Source: Escherichia coli
GTDB lineage: Bacteria > Pseudomonadota > Gammaproteobacteria > Enterobacterales > Enterobacteriaceae
Reading direction: 5' to 3' (one strand)
Assembly (NCBI RefSeq): GCF_003334385.1
Contig: NZ_QOWN01000087.1
Length of the DNA stretch: 4,288 nucleotides
Shown here: positions 3,039-3,656 of the stretch, piece after piece
How positions within the stretch are numbered: the first letter of the stretch is position 1
Layout of the letters: every line of letters begins with the position of its first letter
Position numbers and translations under genes: made by a program
Notes under the pieces: generated by a model
What the model was told of the DNA's origin: nothing
The model's database searches: none
The model's input: the letters and a program-made list of their open reading frames with translations, nothing else

Positions 3039-3656
3039 ATGAATGAAAATGTAAGACACATATTGCTGGATGCAATTGAAAATAAGAAATCTTTAACGGT
3101 AATTTACTTAGGAGGTAGTCAGCCAGGAACATTGAGAGATATATCTCCGATAAGCATATCAGAAGATAAACTTAGGGCAAGATGCCATAGTACTGATGCT
3201 GTAAAGTTTTTTAATATTGGGAAAATACAACTACCTAGTGACTCGTCCATGATAACTGTGCCATATGGAAGTTTAGAGCTTAAAGTTTATGAGACGATGC
3301 AGAGTGTGTATGAGGACTTTCATAGCCTGTATCCGGAAGGTCGATGGGGAGTTGAATTTAATGATCATGAATTTGCTCTATTTGATTTTTTCAAAAATGG
3401 AAAAAGAAAAAAAACAGCATTTATGGCAATTCAGTTTATGGAAAGACATGAGGATGAAACAAGAACGGAGATAACAATTGATGTCAGTCTATCAGGTGTT
3501 GTGATTTCGGAGGGAGCCAGAACACCTAAAAGACGTCCGTGGGTTGTGACTGGTCCCGGGCGTGGAGAGCTAAGAACTTATTCAACGTTAGACAAAGCTG
3601 CTACAGAGTTTTTTAAGCGACTTTCATTGATGGTATCTATGGCGATTGAAACATAA
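3039..3656 (+). CDS. Hypothetical protein, 205 aa; AT-rich cargo (moron) gene downstream of Q; function unknown, possible N-terminal WYL/SH3-like beta-barrel
   Basis: ATG 3039 is preceded by a strong SD AGGAGG (3027-3032) with a 6-nt spacer; stop TAA 3654-3656. Hand-counted GC on sampled 60-nt lines is about 23-48%, against about 50-55% in the nin genes. An intrinsic terminator follows at 3746-3767. The N-terminal pattern LTVIYLGG..GTLRDISPISI..KLRARCH..VKFFNIGKIQL resembles WYL-domain beta-strand spacing (low-confidence inference). No catalytic motif recognised. Confidence 0.7.
   Translation: MNENVRHILLDAIENKKSLTVIYLGGSQPGTLRDISPISISEDKLRARCHSTDAVKFFNIGKIQLPSDSSMITVPYGSLELKVYETMQSVYEDFHSLYPEGRWGVEFNDHEFALFDFFKNGKRKKTAFMAIQFMERHEDETRTEITIDVSLSGVVISEGARTPKRRPWVVTGPGRGELRTYSTLDKAATEFFKRLSLMVSMAIET

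Follow-up and report, generated by a model that had tools for sequence, protein, structure and literature searches.

The A8 tract and the gene that carries it

This analysis concerns a run of eight adenines (the A8 tract) inside an open reading frame (ORF) of 205 amino acids (aa) on contig NZ_QOWN01000087.1 of Escherichia coli. The stretch of DNA that was analysed, hereafter the window, is 4288 nucleotides (nt) long, and A8 is the sole homopolymer of at least 8 nt within it. The ORF and the features that surround the tract are as follows.

3039..3656, + strand: ORF of 205 aa, with an N-terminal WYL domain (about residues 5-65) and a C-terminal alpha/beta sandwich (about residues 85-205), without helix-turn-helix
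3386..3405, + strand: flanking runs T6 (3386-3391), A5 (3393-3397) and A5 (3401-3405), from reading of the sequence
3390..3416, + strand: motif F-K-N-G-K-x-[KR]-K, codons F118-T126, which makes up a beta-hairpin turn and the beginning of the strand that follows, both in the C-terminal domain
3407..3414, + strand: A8 homopolymer, AG[A AAA AAA A]CA, made of the third base of R123, K124, K125 and the first base of T126

The window letters at 3391-3417 are tcaaaaatggaaaaagaaaaaaaacag. Read in frame from the ATG at 3039, the codons TTC AAA AAT GGA AAA AGA AAA AAA ACA specify F118 K N G K R K K T126; the coordinates of the A8 and A5 runs and the KNGKRKKT translation given by an earlier first-pass annotation of this DNA are correct, and the tract lies in frame within the 205-aa ORF. 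The A-rich stretch at 3401-3414 holds 13 A in 14 nt and includes two consecutive AAA codons. We noticed that the T6, A5, A5 and A8 runs (3386-3414) recur at a spacing of about 8-10 base pairs (bp) in a region with 35% GC, a spacing that might bend the DNA or attract H-NS.

In E. coli, RefSeq labels the ORF as a hypothetical or WYL domain-containing protein. The 205-aa protein matches phrog_8498, a family of unknown function (E = 3e-111), and an exhaustive search (E up to 0.001) recovered relatives in 480 clusters at 50% identity; among the best 150 of these 480 clusters, lengths are mostly 170-230 aa. The Pfam WYL match is weak for the 205-aa sequence alone, PF13280 matches 42 of 96 family members at E ≤ 0.1, and the family profile matches the WYL domains of the DriD, CapW-like and BrxR structures (E = 3e-5 to 1e-2). 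With its WYL/Sm-like beta-barrel domain, the host gene product qualifies as a WYL-domain protein, a kind to which DriD, CapW, BrxR and PafBC belong. A search of the 205-aa protein for a helix-turn-helix domain gave no match, which sets it apart from regulators of the CapW/BrxR/DriD type, and because the WYL domain starts at about residue 5 there is no space for such a domain at the N-terminus. For the C-terminal domain, a sequence-profile search of the PDB found nothing, and a search of AFDB50 returned solely uncharacterised or "WYL domain-containing" proteins.

The gene exists in E. coli as two diverged alleles, that of the window and a second (type-2) allele, with identities of 73% for the protein and 76.5% for the DNA. 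Between them dN/dS is 0.225 at a dS of 0.81, and on this comparison the gene is under purifying selection. A toxin or defence identity, which the first-pass annotation had named as a fit for on/off control of this gene, was considered and set aside: PADLOC returned weak WYL-model matches alone (E about 1e-4), which concern the WYL sensor domain, NCBIfam gave nothing meaningful, and Pfam gave the weak WYL match. The start codon at 3039 is ATG on the window haplotype and GTG on all other haplotypes of the same allele, stx2a-phage copies included. Elsewhere in the family, 31 separate stretches of P0040, a protein of 2002 aa, match residues 46-79 of the 205-aa query; the separate stretches suggest WYL-like repeats strung together in a long array.

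The window covers the junction between the early-right and late regions of an E. coli lambdoid prophage, and its other features, by RefSeq annotation and Pfam except for the hairpin, are listed below.

Window start, before 192: end of a LexA-like gene
192-587: RusA
738-1565: KilA-N protein
1567-2562: DUF968/HNH protein
2580..2972, + strand: antiterminator Q (PF06530), upstream of the 205-aa ORF
3743..3767, + strand: terminator-like hairpin with a U run, downstream of the 205-aa ORF (-14.5 kcal/mol, z = -2.0)
3890-4087: ORF of 65 aa, downstream of the hairpin

The 65-aa ORF carries a TrmB-family regulator label in phage phiP27 records, and the final 170 bases of the window (4118-4288) correspond to a stretch that is labelled TciB in phage JLK-2012. 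An identical or near-identical copy of the 205-aa gene was found in 22 of 5,426 complete E. coli genomes, and the type-2 allele in 52 complete genomes. In several of the 22 carriers the gene lies in an stx2a prophage, in the order Q, gene, 65-aa ORF, DNA methylase, three transfer RNAs and stx2AB. Phages 1720a-02 and PhiR5_1 have a related Q without the 205-aa ORF, and their homology to the window resumes at about 3690-3711, hairpin included; because these two phages lack it, the ORF is an optional accessory gene between Q and the next region. Both phages keep the hairpin at 3743-3767 with both stem arms changed (compensation was not scored). A consensus scan for promoters and terminators found no promoter in the spacer between Q and the ORF, and the same scan missed the hairpin at 3743-3767. 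An Rfam scan of the window gave no match, and a known RNA element was accordingly rejected.

Length variants of the tract and other inactivating changes

The length of the run decides which protein is made. A8 gives the 205-aa product, A7 a product of 144 aa and A9 one of 137 aa, so that a change of one nucleotide toggles the full-length protein as it does at a contingency locus; across both diverged alleles, the A9 products measure 137 or 131 aa. Strain 2014C-3097, with the gene in an stx2a phage, carries A7 and an annotated 144-aa product. Exact-sequence look-ups in public assemblies placed one A7 protein in 27 index blocks, a second A7 protein in 11 contigs and an A9 protein in 3 contigs, and the three common A8 proteins in 773, 859 and 515 index blocks. 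Off-length alleles make up 41 index entries (38 blocks and 3 contigs) vs 2,147 A8 blocks (1.9%), two of the 74 copies in complete genomes (2.7%) and one of the 49 in IMG/VR loci (2%). About 97-98% of copies are thus A8, and the tract is not highly polymorphic among close isolates in the manner of a contingency locus.

Haplotyping over 828 bp in 45 copies (44 fetched loci and the window) placed A7 on two unrelated haplotypes, each otherwise identical to an A8 haplotype, and A9 on the window's own haplotype (loci L025-L027; protein P0012). For the type-2 allele, A9 was recovered from complete genome H96, IMG/VR prophage L094 and metagenome contig L004; the last has about 1x coverage and is unreliable alone, and the same A9 allele is corroborated by L094 and H96. 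Altogether, at least four independent slippage events are represented. We also considered that A7, first met in a single long-read-era complete genome, was a sequencing error; this was rejected, the same allele being present in 11 contigs that include a 2013 draft and Logan assemblies. At least 24 contigs carry the other A7 haplotype, among them the one that recurs in 16 samples.

Once formed, off-length alleles are clonally inherited, fixed within lineages and stable. One A7 contig recurs in 16 samples. For the second A7 allele, 11 contigs were read and the ten sequenced loci constitute one haplotype; the six loci with enough flank share one gene order, with stx2 visible in three. The slippage hotspot proposed from the run length in the first-pass annotation is borne out at the DNA level, where A7 and A9 alleles have arisen at least four times, but the variants are rare (about 2-3%) and clonally stable. 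One variant, at L086:3352-3387, has R123Q (CGA to CAA), which extends the run to A9 with the frame kept; since the run is lengthened to nine A's, this allele should be more slippage-prone.

Tract changes were compared with other inactivating events in a sample unselected for tract state, composed of the 74 complete genomes and 49 IMG/VR loci. Two of the seven independent inactivating events fall within the 8 of 618 bases that form the tract (binomial P = 0.003), and the A8 tract is a real mutational hotspot. Among the remaining lesions, K119* (AAA to TAA) of the type-2 allele is carried by four complete genomes and by one IMG/VR locus (L088, L132 and L133 among the loci), at the T/A junction equivalent to 3386-3397, where T7A5 becomes T8A4; a separate K122* allele (GGG AAA to GGG TAA) is present in L089. 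Both stops, K119* and K122*, are inside the lysine motif that bears A8. Insertion sequence (IS) elements split the gene in one genome each, ISVsa5 in L002 (strain 266917_2) and ISKpn26 in L134 (strain SCPM-O-B-7615), and the other lesions comprise a 1-nt deletion near 3299, a further-upstream frameshifting lesion in the type-2 copy P0004, and a 5' truncation. Nonsense, IS and other deletion alleles occur about as often as changes in the tract. Because irreversible inactivation is as frequent as tract change, the pattern points to sporadic decay of an accessory prophage gene.

These distributions bear directly on the possibility of a true contingency locus, in which slipped-strand mispairing would switch the WYL protein off and on in lysogens and so hedge against its cost or counter-selection. 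Such a switch could account for A7 and A9 having arisen more than once, in both alleles and on independent haplotypes, for the enrichment of the tract among inactivating events, for the retention of A8 across alleles 76.5% identical in DNA, and for the in-frame lengthening of the run to A9 by R123Q in L086. However, only about 2-3% of copies are off-length, the off alleles are clonally fixed with no reversal visible among the assemblies, and IS insertions and nonsense changes are equally common, as expected of plain decay. Moreover, the tract does not exceed the length predicted from codon usage, the family has no A8 excess, and distant homologues have no tract (see below). It also counts against a switch that, in E. 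coli with functional mismatch repair, A8 runs mutate at a far lower rate than classical phase-variable tracts do. We consider a contingency locus improbable, and the on/off switching of the gene suggested by the first-pass annotation does not agree with a tract that is A8 in nearly all copies. Quite improbable, in our estimate, is a version in which A8 and the adjacent T/A runs, the source of K119*, would together form a selected evolvability hotspot: lysogens of lambdoid and Stx prophages would repeatedly lose a WYL protein that is costly or counter-selected in some hosts and regain it by back-slippage, and A7 and A9 copies could be rescued in part by low-level back-slippage during transcription.

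Codon usage, the lysine motif and the origin of the tract

We asked how often an A run of at least 8 nt would be expected in this gene. By base composition alone the tract is mildly unusual (P = 0.064 when the ORF is shuffled by mononucleotide and 0.087 when its codons are permuted). With the protein fixed and synonymous codons resampled from the gene's own usage, P rises to 0.46, and it remains at 0.40 when the four tract codons are dropped from the usage table. The gene writes Lys as AAA at 10 of 13 positions and Arg as AGA at 9 of 14. Given a resampling probability of 0.40-0.46 for the fixed protein, the R-K-K-T tract looks as expected in this gene; neither its length nor its conservation goes beyond the prediction from composition and codon usage, whereas those of a phase-variable tract would.

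A family-wide tendency toward A8 runs, an idea raised after A8 was seen in distant homologues, was rejected. Runs of at least eight A's occur in 9 of the 26 distinct family genes with available DNA, and the synonymous-resampling null expects 8.9, so that the family shows neither enrichment nor avoidance of A8. The family runs sit at codons 20, 58, 61, 67, 79, 110, 123 and 184. A8 runs simply arise wherever Lys-Lys adjoins A-ending and A-starting codons in AT-rich genes.

The amino acids beneath the tract are a different matter from its nucleotides. Across the 96 family members, K119 is conserved in 95, N120 in 88, G121 in 93, K122 in 64 and K125 in 88, and in the AlphaFold2 model strands 111-117 and 123-133 flank the motif turn with a predicted local distance difference test (pLDDT) score of 92-94. 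The lysine patch is a conserved feature at the protein level. Position 123 is Pro in most of the family (F-K-N-G-K-P-R-K-T), and because of this, A runs in the motif of distant homologues do not exceed 5 nt, as in every distant viral locus examined. A 41%-identical homologue writes K-K-K as AAG AAA AAG, and a 45%-identical homologue (L127:233-817) has A8 at codon 79 (E-E-K-K-Y) and A7 at codon 61 with none at the FKNG motif. Tract length among homologues, which the first-pass annotation proposed to compare, does vary, since A7 and A9 exist, and distant homologues have at most five A's at the motif.

Both E. coli alleles have A8, written AGA AAA AAA ACA in the window and CGA AAA AAA ACG in the type-2 allele. 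However, the shared tract is uninformative, because Lys codons are the same at 10 of 11 shared sites over the whole gene, the Arg third base is common to both alleles at 6 of 9 positions, and synonymous change is undiminished around the tract, where the fraction of synonymously changed codons (0.29-0.33, vs 0.36 gene-wide) shows no dip.

Slippage, recoding and comparison with known systems

Apart from changes in the DNA, a run of A's could act through the polymerase or the ribosome. The features of the shifted frames are these.

3407..3413, + strand: in-frame heptamer A_AAA_AAA of X_XXY_YYZ type, which has the formal shape of a -1 slippery site
3413..3451, + strand: -1-frame tail of the A9 alleles, NSIYGNSVYGKT, 12 codons, stop at 3449-3451
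3415..3474, + strand: +1-frame tail of the A7 alleles, QHLWQFSLWKDMRMKQERR, 19 codons, stop at 3472-3474
Junction peptides of the predicted 137-aa and 144-aa species: KKNSIYGNSVYGK and KKQHLWQFSLWK

A conserved alternative C-terminus was sought in both shifted frames of the two alleles, as the first-pass annotation had advised, and none was found. The type-2 tails have 15 residues in the +1 frame and 6 in the -1 frame (NGIYGN*), with stops that differ from those after the 19 and 12 codons of the window. In the AlphaFold2 model the truncation point falls inside a beta-hairpin and beta-sheet in mid-domain, not at a domain boundary. Downstream folding gave z = -1.04 over 60 nt and +0.43 over 86 nt for the window, and z = +0.91 and -1.64, with a different structure, for the type-2 allele; these folds of the two alleles contain no significant or conserved hairpin or pseudoknot, and the sequence has no upstream Shine-Dalgarno-like (GGAGG-like) element. 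Programmed -1 frameshifting was therefore rejected, as the in-frame heptamer comes without a stimulatory element and without a conserved -1 product.

Run length leads to a similar reading for the other routes. The site lacks the marks of transcriptional slippage, with a run of 8 (typically at least 9) and no conserved productive ORF in an alternative frame, and it lacks those of a poly(A) track or of ribosome sliding (about 11 A or at least three AAA codons), with 8 A and two AAA codons. In many bacteria, A/T runs prone to slippage show signs of counter-selection from about 9 nt (PMC1088944). In E. coli, transcriptional insertions occur mainly at A and T runs and increase exponentially as a run lengthens (PMC5574713). 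For ribosomes to slide robustly, about A11 is required, and A9 or A10 yields little product (PMC4363877). The length of A8 is thus below the thresholds for appreciable transcriptional slippage or ribosome sliding in E. coli. Low-level slippage noise at the tract is likely, and nothing suggests that it is put to use.

The broader possibility of programmed recoding, in which a polymerase slip on A8 or a ribosomal -1 shift would turn a fixed fraction of the product into a truncated isoform that keeps the WYL domain and half of the domain after it, finds some encouragement in the correct X_XXY_YYZ register of the A_AAA_AAA heptamer, in the role of A/T runs as the main transcriptional insertion sites of E. 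coli (PMC5574713), and in the apparent productivity of A8 in some IS elements of other bacteria (PMC1088944). Yet the tails are 12 and 19 codons long with stops unconserved in the type-2 allele (6 and 15), neither a downstream structure nor an upstream Shine-Dalgarno-like element accompanies the heptamer, synonymous variation is not suppressed near the site, and the break lies inside a beta-sheet. The run is also shorter than the roughly 9 nt that matter in most genomes (PMC1088944), and distant homologues have no such site. We regard recoding as extremely unlikely, and the useful truncated isoform envisaged by the first-pass annotation loses its footing to the unconserved stops, to the break in a mid-domain beta-hairpin and to a run below the slippage thresholds.

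Very doubtful as well is a poly(A)-track-like attenuator at 3401-3414, where slower elongation on AAA codons would trim protein output. Iterated AAA codons do lower protein output in E. coli (PMC4363877), and runs of 9-12 A cut an E. coli reporter, by only 15-35% (PMC5263891). However, the tract offers just two consecutive AAA codons, an arrangement with thousands of cases in E. coli and normal translation, and sliding needs A11 (PMC4363877). In addition, the type-2 allele has 11 A in the corresponding 13 nt (CGA and AAA-C) vs the 13 A in 14 nt at 3401-3414, and the frequency of A runs in the family equals the null expectation.

Taken together, we put at about 85% the probability that A8 is an incidental homopolymer, derived from a conserved basic hairpin and AT-rich codon usage, and an ordinary frameshift hotspot; the by-product of low-GC origin that the first-pass annotation held in reserve is the reading favoured by the data. 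The conserved lysine-rich beta-hairpin F-K-N-G-K-R-K-K-T, combined with a preference for AAA and AGA in an AT-rich gene, would produce the A8. Replication slippage at the tract then occasionally gives rise to A7 or A9 frameshift alleles, as at any 8-base homopolymer, and these alleles, which cut the protein short partway through the C-terminal domain, probably amount to loss of function that is thereafter stably inherited. We infer that the tract has no selected regulatory role, and that any slippage on it by RNA polymerase or the ribosome would be no more than low-level noise. Some observations weigh against this incidental origin. At least four independent length changes have occurred in one small gene, and the tract is over-represented among inactivating events (P = 0.003), where a contingency locus would look alike. 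A8 is intact in both alleles despite a dS of 0.81, a weak point given that the chance of retention would be about 0.5. Lastly, A8 may support productive transcriptional slippage in some organisms (PMC1088944).

By itself, the tract carries little weight, as a textbook homopolymer hotspot. It does matter for annotation: the "hypothetical proteins" of 144, 137 and 131 aa that follow Q in some genomes of Shiga toxin-producing E. coli (STEC) and extraintestinal pathogenic E. coli (ExPEC) are frameshift alleles of one 205-aa gene, and the tract could serve as a minor lineage marker. The host gene is more interesting than the tract, as a widespread conserved WYL protein without a DNA-binding domain that lies beside Q in lambdoid and stx2a prophages.

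Among known systems, programmed transcriptional slippage (A9 in Thermus thermophilus dnaX, T9 in Shigella mxiE, A9 or A8 in IS elements; PMC1088944) likewise depends on a run within a coding region, here of A's on the sense strand. The tract differs in its length of 8 instead of at least 9, in having no productive or conserved alternative frame, and in an ORF arrangement that needs no slippage. With -1 frameshift sites (A_AAA_AAG in E. coli dnaX, and those of IS911 and IS1) it shares an in-frame A_AAA_AAA heptamer; in contrast to them, it has no Shine-Dalgarno-like stimulator or downstream hairpin, and its -1 frame ends after 12 codons at an unconserved stop.

Phase-variable loci of Neisseria, Haemophilus and Campylobacter, with poly-G/C or poly-A tracts (cf. 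PMC5084427), resemble this gene in that the length of a tract within the ORF decides whether a full-length product is made and in that -1 and +1 variants occur in nature. Here, by contrast, the tract is only 8 bases long, about 97-98% of copies are ON, OFF alleles are clonally fixed, codon usage explains the tract, and distant homologues lack it. Mismatch-repair-proficient E. coli, moreover, keeps such tracts comparatively stable. The closest likeness is to ordinary homopolymer frameshift hotspots, which combine a run within an ORF, recurrent variants of plus or minus one nucleotide, truncation of the product and over-representation among inactivating mutations; from these the A8 tract differs in nothing essential, and it provides a new example in an uncharacterised prophage gene.
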